Assembly (NCBI GenBank): GCA_963738405.1
Contig: CAVTWJ010000023.1
Location: forward strand, 352,001 to 416,000
DNA from: a candidate division FCPU426 bacterium
Lineage (GTDB): Bacteria; Oederibacteriota; Muellerivitia; Muellerivitales; Muellerivitaceae
Direction: 5' to 3'
DNA: 64,000 nucleotides
Shown here: piece by piece, positions 12,603 to 19,553 of the stretch
How the letters are laid out: each line of letters begins with the position of its first letter
Position numbering within the stretch: position 1 is the first letter of the stretch
Made by a program: the position numbers and the translations under genes
Notes under the pieces: model-generated
Told to the model about the DNA's origin: nothing
What the model saw: the letters and a program-made list of their open reading frames with translations, nothing else
The model's database searches: none

Positions 12603-14081
12603 ATGGCTGAAAATTTAAAGGTCCTTTTGGTCAATCCCCCCCGCGTCAAGGGCATGCCGGTTGTACGCGAGGAACGCTACGAGCACCGCGACGTGGGCTC
12701 GGTATATCCTCCCCTTTCCATCCTTCAAGGCGCCGCATCCCTCAGACAAGCCGGATACGACGTTCAGGTTTTGGATTGCAACGGTTTTGACCTGCGGCTG
12801 GAAGAAGTAGGCCGGGCCCTTAGCTCTTGGCAGCCCCATCTGGTCGCGGCCCGCATGGCCTTTGACTGCCAGGAAGAAGACTTGAAAGTTCTCCAGATCG
12901 CCAAGGCCGCCGTCCCCAATTGCGTCACCGCCATCCGCAACAAAATGATTTCCGAGGTTCCCTGGCTGTTGGAAGAAATAGTCAAGCGGCCTGAGGTGGA
13001 CTTGTACATCATGTCCGAATTGGACGTGGTTCTTCCCGCCCTGGCCCAAGTGATGCAATCGGCCCTTTCCGAAAAGGGCGAGTTGCCCGCCTATTCTTCC
13101 GAATGGTTCTCAGGCGTGTCCGGGCTGGCCTACCGGGGCAAGAACGGCTTTTCCAAAACCCTCCAAGCTCCTCTGATGCAGGTAGAGGACGCTCCCTTCC
13201 CGGCTTACGACCTTCTGCCTTCGGTCGAGCCCTATCACACGGGCGTCTTTGCCGATCACTTCGCCATGATCCAAACTTCCCGGGGTTGTCCCTTCGGCTG
13301 TACCTTTTGCGCCTACGCCCTGGAAAAATACCGCCCCCGCCCCCATCAGCACGTGGCTGACGAGTTGAAGTGGCTGAAAAAACAGTTCGGGGTTAAGAAC
13401 GTTCTTTTCTTCGACGATCTCTTAGCCCTTAATTCGGACCGCACCGCCGACCTGGCCGAGCAGTTGATTAAGGATGAAGTGAACATGCAGTGGGTTTGCT
13501 GTACCCGCGCCAACCTGACGGATGTGCCATCCCTCAAAAAAATGCGGCAGTCCGGATGCAAGGAACTGGCTGTGGGAATTGAGAGCGGGTCCGATGTGAT
13601 TCTCAACAACATCAACAAGGGCGTTTCAAAGGACGACATCCGCGCCTGCGCCAGCGCCTGCAAGGAAGCGGACATTCTCTTTTACGGCATGACCATCTGC
13701 GGGCTTCCCGGCGAGACCGAGGAAACCTGGCGTGAAACCATCAACTTCATCAAGGAAATCGATCCCTTCTATACCCAGTTCTGCTTCTCGACTCCCTTCC
13801 CCAACACCGAGATGTACACTTGGTACGAGGAAAAGAAATGCCTCAACCATAAGGATTGGAGCCAATATTCACCTCTCGCGCCCCAGCCTGTCGTGCGGAC
13901 CGAAGCCCTGACCTCGCAGGATTTGATCCGCCTGCGCCAGCAAGCCTACCGGGAAGTGCTTTTCCGCCCCAAGTACCTGCTCTCCAAAATCCGTTTAAAC
14001 GACCCCCTTTGGACCCTCAAGGGTGGTTGGGAAGTCGCCAAACGCGGCGCAGCCGTCTTGGCCGGCCACGACGTCCGTTAA
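12603..14081 (+). CDS. B12-binding-domain radical SAM protein
   Basis: LLVNPP, YPPLSI, SRGCPFGCTFC, FFDD, VGIESGS, GLPGET, PFPNT. Confidence 0.88.
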   Translation: MAENLKVLLVNPPRVKGMPVVREERYEHRDVGSVYPPLSILQGAASLRQAGYDVQVLDCNGFDLRLEEVGRALSSWQPHLVAARMAFDCQEEDLKVLQIAKAAVPNCVTAIRNKMISEVPWLLEEIVKRPEVDLYIMSELDVVLPALAQVMQSALSEKGELPAYSSEWFSGVSGLAYRGKNGFSKTLQAPLMQVEDAPFPAYDLLPSVEPYHTGVFADHFAMIQTSRGCPFGCTFCAYALEKYRPRPHQHVADELKWLKKQFGVKNVLFFDDLLALNSDRTADLAEQLIKDEVNMQWVCCTRANLTDVPSLKKMRQSGCKELAVGIESGSDVILNNINKGVSKDDIRACASACKEADILFYGMTICGLPGETEETWRETINFIKEIDPFYTQFCFSTPFPNTEMYTWYEEKKCLNHKDWSQYSPLAPQPVVRTEALTSQDLIRLRQQAYREVLFRPKYLLSKIRLNDPLWTLKGGWEVAKRGAAVLAGHDVR

Positions 14082-14192
14082 AAACACACCCGCCGAAATA
14101 AATCCAATTCACTCAGACCCAAAGGTCTAAAATAGTCCTGTCGCTGAAGTTACCTTTCCCACCCTCTCCTAAATCCCACCAGGAGGCTTTTC

Positions 14193-14477
14193 ATGGCAAC
14201 CTTTTTCATGTTCGGAAAATACACCCCTGAATCTTTAAAACAAGTCAGCGAAGTCCGCACCACCAAGGTCTTGCACCAAATTAAAAAACTGGGGGGCCGG
14301 GTGAAGGATGTTTACGCCCTGCTTGGAAGATTTGACTTGGTTCTGATTGTGGATTTGCCAAGCGTTGAATCGGCCATGAAAGCTTCTTTAATCTTGAGCC
14401 GCCTAACGGGGATTGGGTTCACCTCTTCGCCCGCCATCAAGGTCGAGGAATTCGACAAGCTGGCCACGGCACTGTAG
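14193..14477 (+). CDS. GYD domain protein
   Basis: MATFFMFGKYT, LLGRFDLVLIVD; 94 aa; AGGAGG RBS. Confidence 0.85.
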   Translation: MATFFMFGKYTPESLKQVSEVRTTKVLHQIKKLGGRVKDVYALLGRFDLVLIVDLPSVESAMKASLILSRLTGIGFTSSPAIKVEEFDKLATAL

Positions 14478-14480
14478 AGG

Positions 14481-14548
14481 TCCGCCGGCACTTTACGACT
14501 TCACCGACTATTAAGTGTTAAATGTTGGCTTGGTCCTGTTTTTATTTC
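14481..14548. repeat. Cassette-like direct repeat, copy 1
   Basis: 50/60 identical to 15344-15412 over the core; lies 12 nt 3' of the stop of CDS 14561-15304. Confidence 0.8.
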
Positions 14549-14560
14549 GCCTTAATTTCT

Positions 14561-15304
14561 TTACCTTTGCCAGGGCCTTTTGAGCCGATGGATTGGTTTG
14601 CAGGTCAATGTTTGCAGTACGACACTTCCACCGTTTCTCATTGTGAGTCTGAATCCTTGAATACCATTCAGTACCGGGTGACTCTGGACGACGATATGGA
14701 ATTCATATCCAGCGCCACGAAACGTAATTAGATTATTTCCGGTTGATCTCTGTCGATATGGTTGGGAAACGACCGCACGAAAGCGGTCATTTGGATTGAT
14801 TTTATAAATAAGGATGGGGTAAGTCGCTTCGTCCAGAAGAGCATCATCAAAATACATTCCCCGTAATTTCCGGTAATGTTTTTCGCCCAACAACGATGAT
14901 TCTTCACCGGTTTCCGCCAAATGACCACGAAGCATGACGCTGAAAACAAAATTTTGCATTTTCTTGAAATCTATCAACGTTAGGACAATGCCTGGCTGGT
15001 CGCCGTGCTGGGTCATAACCATACCTATTTTTTCATCTGCGATATTTTTCACTGTGGAATCAGCGGGCTTTTTTCCTAAAACAAGACTTGCAAACCGATC
15101 ATCTTTCGCAAAACGTTCCTCACAAGTCCAACAAATGATCGATTTCTTGTAACCACTTTGAGTTATTTTTAGGCTTTGTTGTTTGGGGTCGTAGGTGTAA
15201 TGCGCCTTATTTTTCCCAAATGCAATCTTATGCATCCACTCAGGAATGACGTGGCTATTCGGATGGAATTTCGGTACATCCTGTTCGCAAAACGGACACC
15301 TCAT
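14561..15304 (-). CDS. HNH-like, zinc-binding putative endonuclease
   Basis: CPFC...SHVIPEW...IICWTCEERF pattern resembles the HNH Zn-finger layout; AT-rich. Confidence 0.55.
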   Translation of the reverse strand: MRCPFCEQDVPKFHPNSHVIPEWMHKIAFGKNKAHYTYDPKQQSLKITQSGYKKSIICWTCEERFAKDDRFASLVLGKKPADSTVKNIADEKIGMVMTQHGDQPGIVLTLIDFKKMQNFVFSVMLRGHLAETGEESSLLGEKHYRKLRGMYFDDALLDEATYPILIYKINPNDRFRAVVSQPYRQRSTGNNLITFRGAGYEFHIVVQSHPVLNGIQGFRLTMRNGGSVVLQTLTCKPIHRLKRPWQR

Positions 15305-15343
15305 TACTAACTCCAGAAAACAAATGAATCATTTAACATTCAA

Positions 15344-15412
15344 TCCGCCCCACACTCTACGACTTCAGCAACTTTTAAGTGTTATATGTTGGCCGGGCCC
15401 TGTTTCTATGTC
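15344..15412. repeat. Cassette-like direct repeat, copy 2
   Basis: Matches 14481-14548; lies 8 nt 3' of the stop of ORF ending 15421. Confidence 0.8.
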
Positions 15413-15420
15413 ATTTATTT

Positions 15421-15669
15421 TCATTTCATTTGATCTATCTCAGCTTGAATACCTGCTCTATCTACATGTTCCAGGTGTTGAATAAATTTCTCAAGGGACG
15501 CTAAGTCTTTTTTCACAAGCTTGAAAGTCGGCTTGGGTTCTTCCATTTTTTTGCCAAAGGTTAGAAAGCCGCCTGAACTGGCAGCCCCTGCCACCTGTGT
15601 AATGATTCCCTCTTTTAATAATTCTCCTGGATCGTTGACGTGATACGACATATCCAAAAACGAACTCAT
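15421..15669 (-). CDS. Small hypothetical protein or gene remnant
   Basis: ATG 15669 with purine-rich AGGAGAAGGAAG upstream; longer TTG start at 15765 and an overlapping frame also possible. Confidence 0.35.
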   Translation of the reverse strand: MSSFLDMSYHVNDPGELLKEGIITQVAGAASSGGFLTFGKKMEEPKPTFKLVKKDLASLEKFIQHLEHVDRAGIQAEIDQMK

Positions 15670-15849
15670 CTTCCTTCTCCTTCTGCGCGCAAGAATGAAC
15701 AACAAACAAAAAGTAAGGTGCTTCGTCCATCCCTTCAATACTTCGGGGGATAAAACACCTGTCAAAAGAAGGAAAAATTTTACTTAGTTTTCACCTAGAA
15801 ACGCCAAAAGACAGAATATCTACCCAATTGTATGTATTGTAGAGGCGGT

Positions 15850-16869
15850 TTATGGAATTCTTGACCGAATATAACTCTCTGAAAGAGGTTCTGTATATTT
15901 TATCTTTACCAGCTTTACTTTATTCCTTTTACATAACTTTTCTTTTCGCTTGTCACGGTCCTTCAATTTAATAAATGCTTTCTCGCCGCCCCAGATAGAT
16001 ATTGGATGATAGTGTTGTTGTCCTTGATACTCAAAAGCCAAGTGTTGATGCGGCACATAAACGTCAAGTTCCAATCTCTCAAGCCATTCAGGGCGATAAT
16101 GAAAAATTACATCTTCTCCTTTGAAGATTTGTCTGATTATCTGAAAAAGCAATGTTTCGGAAACCCAGGCCTCCCCTACGCGTTTAAACCCAAACTCTGT
16201 CCGAACTTCATTTTCAATGAGCCTTGTAAGATTTCGGGTTGCACGTGTGTTATTGCGGCTTAGCTGTTTTTGTTCTTTCAGCAATTCTTCACGTTCACTT
16301 GGAGGTTTTAAGGCATACCCCCTCATCTTTACAGTGTGCTCAAACAATGGTTCGCGGTGTTTTTTCAATTCTGCTATCAATTTTTGGTATTCGGGAGGAC
16401 AAACGTCTGGAAGAAAATTGTATGTCGTGCGTTTTATTCCGAAGCGAAAAAAAGTTTGGTTAATGTACCATCCGAAATTTTGAACGAAATCACCGCCGTA
16501 CATGGGATGGCAATAAATCAATGTCGGTGGCTGTAAATTGCAACGGTGACACAAACCCTCTTTGAAATTAAATAGTGAGATTGGATCTTTTGGATTTTTC
16601 ATGGAAAGCTCAGCTAATTTGGTAGGAAAGTCATAGCTGTCAAGGGGTGCCATTCGCAACGGATAAGCATTTAAGGTTTTTTTCACGGAACGCAGGCGAA
16701 CGTAATGGTCAATCGGCGACTTGGAACACGAGCAAAGAAATATATTTCCGTCATGTGAATTTGAAAAAGCAAAAAAAGTGCCGTAATGGTTCGGATAGTG
16801 AACCATTGGGAGTGGGAGCGATTCTTGGTAAATTCCGCCTAGTGAAACTGCTCGTTTCAGTTTTCGCAT
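15850..16869 (-). CDS. Cys/His-rich protein with C-terminal Vsr/DUF559-like PD-(D/E)xK nuclease domain
   Basis: SETLL...ELDVYVP...AFEYQGQQHY...RDKRKEKLC...LVKIKY; N-terminal CSC, CHRC, CH motifs; AT-rich. Confidence 0.7.
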   Translation of the reverse strand: MRKLKRAVSLGGIYQESLPLPMVHYPNHYGTFFAFSNSHDGNIFLCSCSKSPIDHYVRLRSVKKTLNAYPLRMAPLDSYDFPTKLAELSMKNPKDPISLFNFKEGLCHRCNLQPPTLIYCHPMYGGDFVQNFGWYINQTFFRFGIKRTTYNFLPDVCPPEYQKLIAELKKHREPLFEHTVKMRGYALKPPSEREELLKEQKQLSRNNTRATRNLTRLIENEVRTEFGFKRVGEAWVSETLLFQIIRQIFKGEDVIFHYRPEWLERLELDVYVPHQHLAFEYQGQQHYHPISIWGGEKAFIKLKDRDKRKEKLCKRNKVKLVKIKYTEPLSESYIRSRIP

Positions 16870-16976
16870 GTTAGATATGGCTTTCCACCATTCAATTTAT
16901 CCAGCCAGCCCTGGGGGGCTTCAGGATTGAATTTAGCCAAGATTTCCCCCTTAGTTGATGAGCGAGAAAGGGTCTT

Positions 16977-17370
16977 GTTCACCGGAAATCGGGTTTAGTT
17001 TACTTAAATGGGGAAAAATTTCACCGGAAACACCGTATCCTTCACCGGAAATTCTGGCTGTTTACCAGGCAGTGCGTAGTTCTTCACCGGAAAACCGGTC
17101 TTGTTCACTAGAAATACCTTACTTTCACCGGGTAAGGGGTGCTGTGGTTCACTGGAAAACGCATGCGTTCAACGGAAATAGGGCGGCCGTTCAATGGAAA
17201 TTCCATGGGTGTTCAACGGAAAATGGAACTCGTTCAATGGAAACTTCGGCCTGTTCAACGGAAATTTTGGCTTGTTCAATGGAAATGGTGTAGGCGTTCA
17301 ATGGGAAATCGCCCGTGTTCAATGGAAATACCGTAACCTTCAATGGAAAATCGGGCCTGTTGACTGGAAA
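16977..17370. repeat. Array of 19 copies of a 12-bp motif (consensus GTTCAMYGGAAA) at ~21-bp period with unique 8-12-bp spacers
   Basis: Copies start at 16977, 16998, 17019, 17040, 17060, 17082, 17103, 17123, 17147, 17167, 17189, 17211, 17232, 17253, 17274, 17296, 17317, 17338, 17359; a few are degenerate. Confidence 0.9.
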
Positions 17371-17499
17371 CGGGGATATGCCATTCGCCTATATCCACTC
17401 AAGCGGAGAAGGGGAAAATCCACTTAAATCCCACCCCAAAGAACCTCTTTCCCATGTGGCCCGGAAGCCCCTTCTTTAATACAATCATCCCGCTAAACC

Positions 17500-18591
17500 A
17501 TGAAACCACCCAAATCCACCCCCCCACGCCGGTACTTGATCCTTTCCGCCAAGGGCTGGGGCACAGGTAGTGCCCTAAGGGCCTACTACATCGCCGAAGC
17601 CTTGAGGCAAAAGGGCCATACCGTCCACTTTCCCCCGCCGCTCCCCACCCTGCCCGGCTGGATCGACATGGCCCTTTCGAGCCTTTATTACCTCCTCTAT
17701 TCCCTTTTCGTCAAAACCGACCTGGCTTTCTGTGTCAAACCCTACCCCATGGCGGTGCCCGCCCTTTGGGTTCAACGCCTCAAGGGTGCAAAGGTAATCT
17801 TCGACGTGGATGACCTGGATTACGCTTATAGCCGCGGCGTCTTTTTAACCTTCCACTGGTGGCTTCAAAGGCCCTGGCCCGATTGGGCCGATGGGGTGAC
17901 CTACCACAACCCCAAGCTAAAAGACGCGATCATGAGCGACTTCAAGGTTTCCTCTTCCAAAATCCGCCAGGTCCCCCAGGGCGTGGATGAATCCATCTTC
18001 AACACGCTTCCCATAAAGGAAGCCGACATACCGCCCGGCGTGGCGGATTGGGTAGCAAAACAAAAGGGACCCCTGCTTTGCTTCACGGCTCACCTAAACG
18101 TGGCTTGCGATTTGGGCCCGGCGCTCGAAGCTTTCAAACTTATATTGGAATCTTCACCCAAAGCCAGCCTCTTGATCGCAGGCGGTGGGCCGGATGAAAA
18201 CAAATTCCGTGACCAGGCCCATAGCCTGGGCATAGCGGGTTCCCTTTATTTCACCGGGCTCATCACGCCCCAACAGGTTGCGGCCTGTTTGAAACTTTCG
18301 GACGAAGTGCTGGTTTACTACGCCGACACCCCCGCCAACCGGCACCGTTCTTCCATGAAGCTTCGGGAAGCCCTGGCCTGTGGTGCTAAGGTGGTGGCCA
18401 CCCGGGTCGGCGAGGCTGCGGCCTTTAAAAAGGCGCTCTTTTTATCCCCGGCGGAACCCAAAGGCTTCGCTAAGGCCCTTTTGGGGGCCCTGAAGGCCAA
18501 AAAAACTTCCCGGCCAGGGGCTATACTGGTAAAAAAGTGGGGTTGGAAAACCTGTGTGGAACCCCTTGAAAAGGAATGGAATTCCCTCTAA
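17500..18591 (+). CDS. Glycosyltransferase family 4
   Basis: FDVDD, VPQGVD, LLIAGGGP, MKLREALACG.KVVATRVG. Confidence 0.8.
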   Translation: MKPPKSTPPRRYLILSAKGWGTGSALRAYYIAEALRQKGHTVHFPPPLPTLPGWIDMALSSLYYLLYSLFVKTDLAFCVKPYPMAVPALWVQRLKGAKVIFDVDDLDYAYSRGVFLTFHWWLQRPWPDWADGVTYHNPKLKDAIMSDFKVSSSKIRQVPQGVDESIFNTLPIKEADIPPGVADWVAKQKGPLLCFTAHLNVACDLGPALEAFKLILESSPKASLLIAGGGPDENKFRDQAHSLGIAGSLYFTGLITPQQVAACLKLSDEVLVYYADTPANRHRSSMKLREALACGAKVVATRVGEAAAFKKALFLSPAEPKGFAKALLGALKAKKTSRPGAILVKKWGWKTCVEPLEKEWNSL

Positions 18592-19553
18592 TGCGACGCC
18601 TCAGTTCCTTCGCCTTCCTCTTAGGCCTGCTTCTTTTCGCCCTTCTCCTCAAAATGGTGGACCTGCCCGCCACCCTTCGCATTTTGGAATCGGCCAGCCC
18701 CTTTTGGGTGGGCATGTCTTTTCTTTTTATATTGCCCGAGATCATCTTCAAGGCCTTCCGCATTTCAGGGTTAGCCCGTGTTTTTCATTCGCACCTGACG
18801 GTGAAGGATTCGGTGCGCATCTACCTGGCGGGCCAACCCCTGGCATCCGTCACCCCCGCCAAGCTGGGAGACATTGTGAGGGTGCTGGGTATCAGCCGCT
18901 GGGGAAATTTGAGGTCCTATTCGGCCTTTGCCGTGCACGCGGCGGATAAGGTTTATGACCTGCTGGCCCTGGGGCTTCTGGCGGCCATTGGGTTGATTTC
19001 GCTGATCCTTCAAAACCAGCACCAGGCCCCCGCCGAGGCGGCCCTTTTAGGCATCGGCATCGGCATCCTTTTAATGGCGCTTGTCTTAAACCCCCAATGG
19101 ATGAGGCTGGTTCTAAAACCCCTATTGCTGATTTTGGCCCCGAAAAAGCTGGCCGAGCAGTTTTCCGCCCACGGCAAAGAATTTTATAAAGACCTGCACA
19201 GTCTCTTCATGCCCGCGAAACTGATCCTGCCCTCCAGCCTGTCATTGCTGGCTTGGGGCACCGTGCTGGTCCGGGCTTATTTTTGCGCCCTGGCCTTGGG
19301 GATTAACCTTTCCTTCTCCTCCATCGCCCTGCTGTTGCCCGTGGTGATCGTGATAGAATTCATCCCCGTCACCATTTTAGGCTTCGGAACCCGGGAGGCC
19401 GCCTTGTTCGTCTTTTTCACCTCGACCCAGGTGGATCGGTCGGGCCTTCTTTCTTTCTCGCTCATGATGGTTTTGGCCGGCCCCCTCTTTACATCGCTGG
19501 CGGGCATTCCCTTCGCCATGAAACTTTCCGCCCAGGTGAAGGACAAGCCATGA
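18576..19553 (+). CDS. Flippase-like (lysylphosphatidylglycerol synthase TM/AglD-like) membrane protein
   Basis: TPAKLGDIVR, DKVYDL, PVTILGFGTRE motifs; multiple TMs. Confidence 0.8.
   Translation: MEFPLMRRLSSFAFLLGLLLFALLLKMVDLPATLRILESASPFWVGMSFLFILPEIIFKAFRISGLARVFHSHLTVKDSVRIYLAGQPLASVTPAKLGDIVRVLGISRWGNLRSYSAFAVHAADKVYDLLALGLLAAIGLISLILQNQHQAPAEAALLGIGIGILLMALVLNPQWMRLVLKPLLLILAPKKLAEQFSAHGKEFYKDLHSLFMPAKLILPSSLSLLAWGTVLVRAYFCALALGINLSFSSIALLLPVVIVIEFIPVTILGFGTREAALFVFFTSTQVDRSGLLSFSLMMVLAGPLFTSLAGIPFAMKLSAQVKDKP

Follow-up and report, generated by a model that had tools for sequence, protein, structure and literature searches.

What purpose does a long row of short, regularly spaced DNA repeats serve beside a gene that looks foreign to its genome? 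The question is raised by one locus of the window, by which we mean the whole stretch of 64,000 nucleotides analyzed here, originating from a candidate division FCPU426 bacterium. A first-pass annotation had offered two readings of this row: a helically phased platform for the binding of a protein, or a guide or antitoxin RNA array tied to a neighboring nuclease gene. The comparisons presented below support the former and contradict the latter. We consider it likely that the array is the orphaned remainder of a two-part module, composed of phased sites and of the gene encoding their binder, and that its adjacency to the 'nuclease' is accidental. The following features of the window are involved.

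16978..17370, forward strand: phased array, 19 units repeated every 21.2 bp on average (contig C23, 368978-369372)
16978..17158, forward strand: gene-proximal half of the array, 9 TTCACYGGAAA-type units, 5 perfect and 4 decayed, with irregular spacing
17168..17370, forward strand: distal half of the array, 10 TTCAAYGGAAA-type units, 8 perfect and 2 with one mismatch
16894..16977, reverse strand: family-gene remnant, comprising a conserved leader, a Shine-Dalgarno-like AGGGGG (~16951-16945), a TTG start (16940-16938) and ~15 codons to W-L-D-K-L
15850..16869, reverse strand: 339-aa ORF, the 'nuclease' of the first-pass annotation, whose ATG lies ~70 nt downstream of the start of the family gene, in the same direction
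15421..15765, reverse strand: 114-aa ORF, AT-rich, in the same insert
14561..15304, reverse strand: 247-aa ORF, AT-rich, in the same insert
14480..17440, no strand: genome-specific segment, delimited by comparison with two same-genus genomes
17500..18591, forward strand: glycosyltransferase gene, outside the module; relatives conserve both the gene and the region upstream of it (~17443-17499)

The core of the array, GTTCAMYGGAAA on the forward strand, points away from the truncated family gene. With at most one mismatch, TTCAMYGGAAA matches 16 times in 16978-17370, always on the forward strand, and 28 times in the whole window, as compared with 8.05 +/- 2.98 matches in 100 dinucleotide-preserving shuffles of the window, none of which reached 28 (0/100). 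Another unit, at 17124 (TTCACCGGGTA), is gained when 3 substitutions are tolerated, and two decayed units that lie in register at 16999 and 17061 were found by direct reading, which restores the 19 copies initially counted. The 382 bp separating the first unit from the last correspond to 18 intervals and reproduce the mean period of 21.2 bp; besides a period of 21, Tandem Repeats Finder detects higher-order ones of 42/43 and 64 bp. Individual spacings include 20, 21, 22 and 24 bp, and those of 20, 22 and 24 bp break the reading frame, as had been pointed out. The left-to-right gradient described earlier is genuine, the units from 16978 to 17148 being of the more degenerate TTCACY type (decayed at 16999, 17061, 17104 and 17124) and those from 17168 to 17360 of the TTCAAY type, and the alternation of C and T is equally present across 17168-17275. 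The spacers are constrained in length and unconstrained in sequence, while the cores are conserved.

Between the ATG (16869) of the ORF at 15850-16869 and the beginning of the array there are 109 bp, in agreement with the distance of ~110 bp reported at first, and this ORF belongs to an AT-rich island whose G+C content (~14480-16890) is 37-44% versus 55-58% in the flanks. Such proximity to a foreign island and the layout of repeats and unique spacers would be expected of a CRISPR- or TIGR-like guide, antitoxin or small-RNA array serving the 339-aa 'nuclease', a reading to which we nevertheless assign hardly any probability. No nuclease family is detectable in the ORF, which matched nothing in Pfam (E <= 1), NCBIfam, PADLOC or the PDB sequences; the proposed label of Vsr/DUF559-like nuclease could not be confirmed, its sole lead being a weak Atlas feature score of 0.87 to a viral cluster with DUF559 in 51% of its members. 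Relatives of the ORF were found in 0/98 other genomes of the phylum, where arrays are common. Elsewhere it has 366 homologues with at most 50% identity, the few named records being bacterial and archaeal (Halobacteriota, Psychromonas, Kiritimatiellae, Opitutaceae, Bacteriovoracaceae, Pontibacter and others), and 0/7 homologue loci examined carried an array of at least 5 copies within 1.5 kb. At the RNA level, a scan of 14000-19000 against Rfam (E <= 1) gave no family match, and both strands of 17140-17375 fold worse than shuffles (z +1.06 and +1.76). Arrays of the same class pair instead with the gene of a DNA-binding protein, as described below. The 339-aa ORF is a foreign gene and not the partner of the array; for the window, this means that there is no 'array plus nuclease' system of the kind suspected and that the link is spurious.

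Some observations on the insert itself can be added. None of the 366 homologues has a Pfam domain, and they constitute a widespread unnamed family; the C-terminal third of the 339-aa ORF may be DUF559-like. The three ORFs of the insert gave no match in PADLOC. In two same-genus genomes (L125 and L127), a T/P-rich lipoprotein gene instead separates the GYD-domain gene from the glycosyltransferase gene, encoding a secreted protein of ~340-510 aa with a lipoprotein-like signal, and the array is absent; their similarity to the window resumes only at ~17443. The interval 14480-17440, which borders a polysaccharide gene cluster, is a hot spot of replacement.

The same core is not confined to the window. 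Over the 3.18 Mb of the genome, distributed in 23 contigs (C), the exact window motif clusters at 5 loci: C12:80217-80400, C14:240918-241100, C18:7544-7790, C2:116400-116645 and the window array itself. Core and period are thus repeated at four other loci with no such ORF nearby, the very situation in which the first-pass annotation would have given up its nuclease link. In blastn comparisons between the window array and these four, matches were driven by the core and no spacers were held in common; the window array is therefore not a recent copy of the others, and nothing suggests recent gene conversion. Intact paralogues of 700 and 671 aa, on the opposite strand, have their start at most ~100 bp from the arrays on C12 and C14, respectively, and the core of these two arrays is that of the distal half of the window array. 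Four further paralogues (C14:126984, C9, C4 and C5) keep the N-terminus and possess upstream arrays of their own, with the same period and the cores TTCTGCCGGTRG, TGTTTACCCGGTT, GTTTAACAG and TGTTTACCGAAGA.

A profile HMM of the N-terminal domain identified 17 ORFs in the genome, which can be ranked into short forms, where the domain begins within the first 51 residues (n=6), and long forms, where it begins after residue 115 (n=11). The distribution of arrays follows this division: they accompany 6/6 short forms, with 7-14 copies, and 0/11 long forms exceed 3 copies. Small K/R-rich ORFs located beyond the array at C12 and C4 were considered as a third part of the module and discarded, since the remaining four modules lack them and no paralogue of them exists. 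Two long-form ORFs, C22:114983-116695 and C14:60067-61728, each contain two tandem ParB-type DNA-binding domains.

Where, then, is the partner of the window array? By tblastn and HMM searches, no intact adjacent gene with a ParB-type head and hydrophobic segments, nor any family sequence beyond a short remnant, was found within 2.5 kb. The minus strand of 16894-16977, on the other hand, aligns with the leader, the ribosome-binding site, the TTG start and the first codons of the C12 and C14 genes; the homology lies within an ORF at 16857-16982 and stops near 16894, just past W-L-D-K-L. The domain HMM missed this remnant because it is too short. The array begins 38 bp upstream of its TTG, in the orientation found in the C12 and C14 modules. 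Judging from this alignment, the array's own partner is the truncated gene located between the array and the 339-aa ORF, which had escaped the first-pass annotation. Either AT-rich foreign DNA replaced the body of the family gene, or the island arrived with the module already broken. The 339-aa ORF stands directly behind the leader of the destroyed gene and may for this reason use its promoter. A promoter scan gave no match in the leader of the window remnant; in the C14 module, the first repeat provides a -35-like TTGAAC, 18 nt ahead of TAAAAT. With its partner gene cut off and replaced, the window array is to be regarded as a probable relic.

The nature of the partner emerged from profile comparisons. 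Single-sequence searches had returned 6 proteins (word-indexed) and no Pfam family, and the 671-aa paralogue had no usable match in the ESM Atlas. A profile search retrieved 212 proteins (E <= 0.001) among 1.84 billion representatives, many of them long forms with ~110-140 extra N-terminal residues. In the long forms tested, Pfam ParB_N was recognized in 15/16 at E <= 0.01 and in 9/16 above the curated cut-off. Against PDB sequences, a 32-member profile matched Noc (7ng0, E 2.1e-19), Spo0J (1vz0, 5.8e-16) and ParB (4umk, 9.1e-16) in an alignment spanning the ParB N-domain and the helix-turn-helix DNA-binding domain, where the short forms begin, at a W-L-D motif. ParB_N, the CTPase domain, has no match in the array-linked short forms, which start directly at the DNA-binding domain. 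According to a hydropathy count, a charged linker of ~100 residues follows and precedes four hydrophobic segments that probably span the membrane; the conserved C-terminal domain gave sub-threshold PDZ-like matches only.

Companions usual for ParB were sought as well. A ParA-type gene (PF13614 model) was found within 5 kb of none of the six modules nor of the window array, the 5 matches in the genome being located at C14:34255, C1:179946, C22:26572, C14:90091 and C1:179249. No parS-like palindrome (2 mismatches allowed) occurs in or near the window array, whose units are direct repeats. The modules with a GTTTAMC core have a common recognition-helix motif, [LV]S[FK][LY], though they are not each other's closest kin, and the two modules with a TTCAAC core have a different common motif; it is suggestive that recognition-helix motifs track core types. 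DNA binding by the family protein, as well as its function, are proposals that we draw from sequence comparison.

The association of short forms with arrays extends beyond this genome. The family is present in 16/41 related genomes, the window's own included; within the taxonomic family of the window, 14/24 other genomes carry it, often with 10-16 matches each. Among short-form loci from the other genomes of this taxonomic family, 21/25 display 5-22 copies at 21/22 or 42/43 bp, at most ~205 bp upstream, and among long-form loci of the same genomes, which are weak matches, arrays were found in 0/5. The four exceptions among the short forms are L024 with 4 copies, L027 with none, L034 with 3 and L033 with 6 copies located 555 bp away. 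For comparison, the same detector reached 5 copies in 5/300 random 730-bp windows of the present genome, some of which may themselves contain genuine arrays or repeats within coding sequence. The cores vary greatly from one array to another, yet the period averages 21.36 +/- 0.23 bp (25 arrays). The occurrence of arrays at ParB-head genes, in 6/6 cases here and in 21/25 in related genomes, supports the reading of the array as a helically phased protein-binding platform. A pattern search of genome contigs with the family alignment produced 122 matches, 0 of them confirmed.

These related arrays also permit an assessment of whether the repeats could be a decayed heptad-repeat coding sequence or a functionless satellite. 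A unit of 21 bp amounts to 7 codons, a 112-aa ORF overlaps the window array, and one look-alike discussed further below (L201) does appear by eye to be a coding heptad repeat. In the window, however, no frame survives the spacings of 20, 22 and 24 bp, and none does in the 25 related arrays, where spacings of 21 and 22 bp alternate, which led us to reject the decayed heptad sequence that had been kept as an alternative. Unconstrained spacers between conserved cores, and a position and orientation fixed relative to one gene family, render either version of this explanation exceedingly improbable.

Mobile DNA offers another conceivable origin, with the repeats acting as iterons of a replication origin or as multi-site ends of an integrated mobile element. 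Direct repeats of ~21-22 bp beside the gene of a putative binder do resemble plasmid iterons, and the modules sit in variable regions, the one on C14 beside an IS3 transposase and the one on C12 among ORFs that, from their sequence, we take to be toxin-antitoxin-like; the window segment is genome-specific, and a look-alike in Gallionella lies between integrase genes. The partner, however, has a ParB/Noc head and not a Rep fold, 6 intact modules coexist with orphans in one 3.2-Mb genome, and no Rep, transposase or integrase is consistently adjacent. The array on C14 is moreover G+C-rich, with no obvious AT-rich unwinding element. We hold an origin of this kind to be very unlikely.

The module that we favor would operate as follows. 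Its protein consists of an N-terminal ParB/Noc-type head, a charged linker, four predicted membrane segments and a conserved C-terminal domain, and one head would occupy each core of 11-13 bp. Cores placed about every 21.4 bp, roughly two helical turns, would align 5-22 membrane-held proteins along one side of the DNA, and the resulting fixed, multi-site nucleoprotein patch would pin the locus to the membrane and probably control the promoter of its own gene. Because a clamp-less head cannot spread from one site and the multi-site array was gained in exactly those forms, fixed sites may have replaced spreading, a row of hard-wired sites substituting for the CTP-driven process that starts from a single parS. 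In the window, the partner gene would have been severed after ~15 codons and AT-rich DNA carrying the 339-aa ORF would have taken over the rest; the array could still serve in trans as a binding site for the two intact paralogues whose arrays have its distal core.

Phasing at about two turns would place the heads on one side of the DNA, which suits membrane-held proteins, and is the reason for which we read the module as a putative tether between locus and membrane. The geometry calls for two qualifications. A period of 21.36 bp corresponds to 10.7 bp per turn and not 10.5, so that strict same-face alignment over 19 units requires slightly underwound DNA or a gentle superhelix, and with a linker of ~100 residues geometry alone does not force phasing. 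A broader version of the proposal would have arrays and CTPase-less membrane ParB heads fix chosen loci to the membrane, with private specificities marking different loci and orphans acting as trans docking sites that place or switch envelope-polysaccharide genes; we put it forward as a speculation that is more probably wrong than right.

Orphans are not restricted to the window: array-bearing loci without a family gene are found at C18, at C2:116400 and at a pair with a different core, C2:197735 and C1:41829. Around orphan arrays, an HMM search for family remnants was empty, as was the reading by eye of the C18 and C2 left flanks. The C2:116400-116645 orphan (L004 6401-6646) consists of 12-13 TTCACCGGAAA units arranged as 42-bp dimers whose spacers are near-identical, which indicates recent tandem expansion. 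A GH31 glycosidase gene flanks it on one side and a sialate-esterase-like gene on the other.

The position of such orphans invites the idea that the window array is, or has become, an upstream control element of the glycosyltransferase/exopolysaccharide operon, or of the captured 339-aa ORF, to which a paralogue or an unrelated regulator would bind in trans. A gap of 130 bp separates the end of the array from the start of the glycosyltransferase gene, and one of ~60 bp the end of the C2:116400 orphan from the esterase gene; the distal half of the window array is nearly perfect (8/10 units), with the core of two intact paralogues, and the leader of the family gene is immediately followed by the 339-aa ORF. 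In same-genus genomes, however, the glycosyltransferase and esterase genes are array-free, and the upstream region proper to the glycosyltransferase gene is conserved to the right of the array. In particular, the esterase orthologue of the same-genus genome G001 has no counterpart of the C2:116400 array upstream. Neither of the two orphans tested, the window array and C2:116400, is conserved at its syntenic site in same-genus genomes, which argues against a conserved role in trans. A control element of this sort is in our opinion unlikely, and the window array is better viewed as the probable relic of a module.

How does the proposed module compare with known systems? ParB proteins are CTP-operated clamps that load at one palindromic site and then slide. 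The module differs by the absence of the clamp, by the four-segment anchor and by the phased array, present in 6/6 and 21/25 cases as against 0/11 and 0/5 for the clamp-bearing relatives. If binding is confirmed, it would constitute a natural experiment in which many fixed sites stand in place of spreading, and a simple, specific DNA-to-membrane tether with interchangeable specificities. It has in common with chromosomal ParB-parS a homologous DNA-binding domain, and several cores (GTTTCAC, GTTCCAC and TGTTTAC) resemble a parS half-site; unlike that system, the module arrays have no 16-bp palindrome, no CTPase domain and no adjacent ParA.

Noc is a ParB relative that brings DNA sites to the membrane, to which it attaches by an amphipathic helix, and its sites are scattered. 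It is also the best match of the family among sequences of solved structures (7ng0, E 2e-19). The anchor of the module differs in being made of four hydrophobic segments, its array-linked forms are CTPase-less and its sites are grouped locally in a single phased array. In ParR-parC, TubR-tubC and plasmid iterons, helically phased direct repeats likewise bring together numerous copies of a single small DNA-binding protein; the binders there are soluble proteins of ribbon-helix-helix or winged-helix folds, and the systems are plasmid-borne, with motor or Rep partners. As for CRISPR and TIGR-Tas, the resemblance is limited to the look of repeats and variable spacers; unlike these systems, the arrays show neither a hairpin-forming repeat nor a signal of RNA structure, Cas and Tas genes are missing, and some arrays contain near-identical duplicated spacers. 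In Bacillus subtilis, Noc is described as nucleating on 16-bp NBS sites, with a CTP switch controlling membrane binding (PMC8429893).

The sopC centromere of the F plasmid is described as 12 direct repeats of 43 bp, and SopB as a type Ia ParB (PMC3177203). In sopC/SopB as in the module, the gene of a ParB-family DNA-binding protein lies next to a long tandem row of the sites of that protein, and the period of 43 bp of sopC can be set against ~21.4 bp in the module, where units often form 42-43-bp dimers. The sopC unit contains a 16-bp inverted repeat for a SopB dimer; the cores of the module are direct repeats with at most a TTC/GAA mini-dyad. Unlike sopC/SopB, the module has no ParA-type gene within 5 kb and no CTPase domain, possesses four hydrophobic segments and, in place of one plasmid locus, exists as many chromosomal paralogues. 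No description of the module was found in the literature on membrane-anchored or transmembrane ParB, or on ParB with direct repeats at two helical turns; in a 2025 survey of ParB-CTPase fusions, the passages of the main text that were searched contain 0 occurrences of 'transmembrane' (PMC12704722). We take the window array, which is real, to be an orphan belonging to a variant of ParB-type site arrays that has apparently not been described.

The core sequence itself has a wider distribution than the family. A whole-collection scan for the core pair of the window yielded 71 stretches, mostly single pairs, with 0 from the phylum of the window, 0/71 with a family head within 2.5 kb and no intact partner gene of the TTCACCGGAAA type. 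With at most one mismatch and a period of 20-22 bp, the window's core also occurs in six unrelated lineages (L170, L158, L189, L142, L148 and L143): Gallionella (11 copies at 22 bp), a Bacteroidota MAG (12), Chthoniobacterales (13 at 20 bp), Verrucomicrobiales (7), Ruminiclostridium (6) and Prevotella (6). The genes flanking these look-alikes are unrelated, integrase genes enclosing the Gallionella array, and no family head lies within 2.5 kb; the core is consequently not exclusive to this family. The look-alike L201, with exact 21-bp units and identical spacers inside long ORFs, was classified by eye as apparently coding.

Two minor observations concern other loci of the genome. Perfect canonical parS palindromes (TGTTCCACGTGGAACA) are present at C18:19140 and C18:21906, 11-14 kb from the orphan array of that contig (7544-7790). 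The arrays at C2:197735-197885 and C1:41829-41949 have 7 copies each, with a period of 21-22 bp and the core ATTAAGCGARGATTT and its reverse complement; they have no ParB-head gene nearby, are oppositely oriented, have one ~60-bp hairpin-bearing flank in common and may represent the termini of a mobile element.
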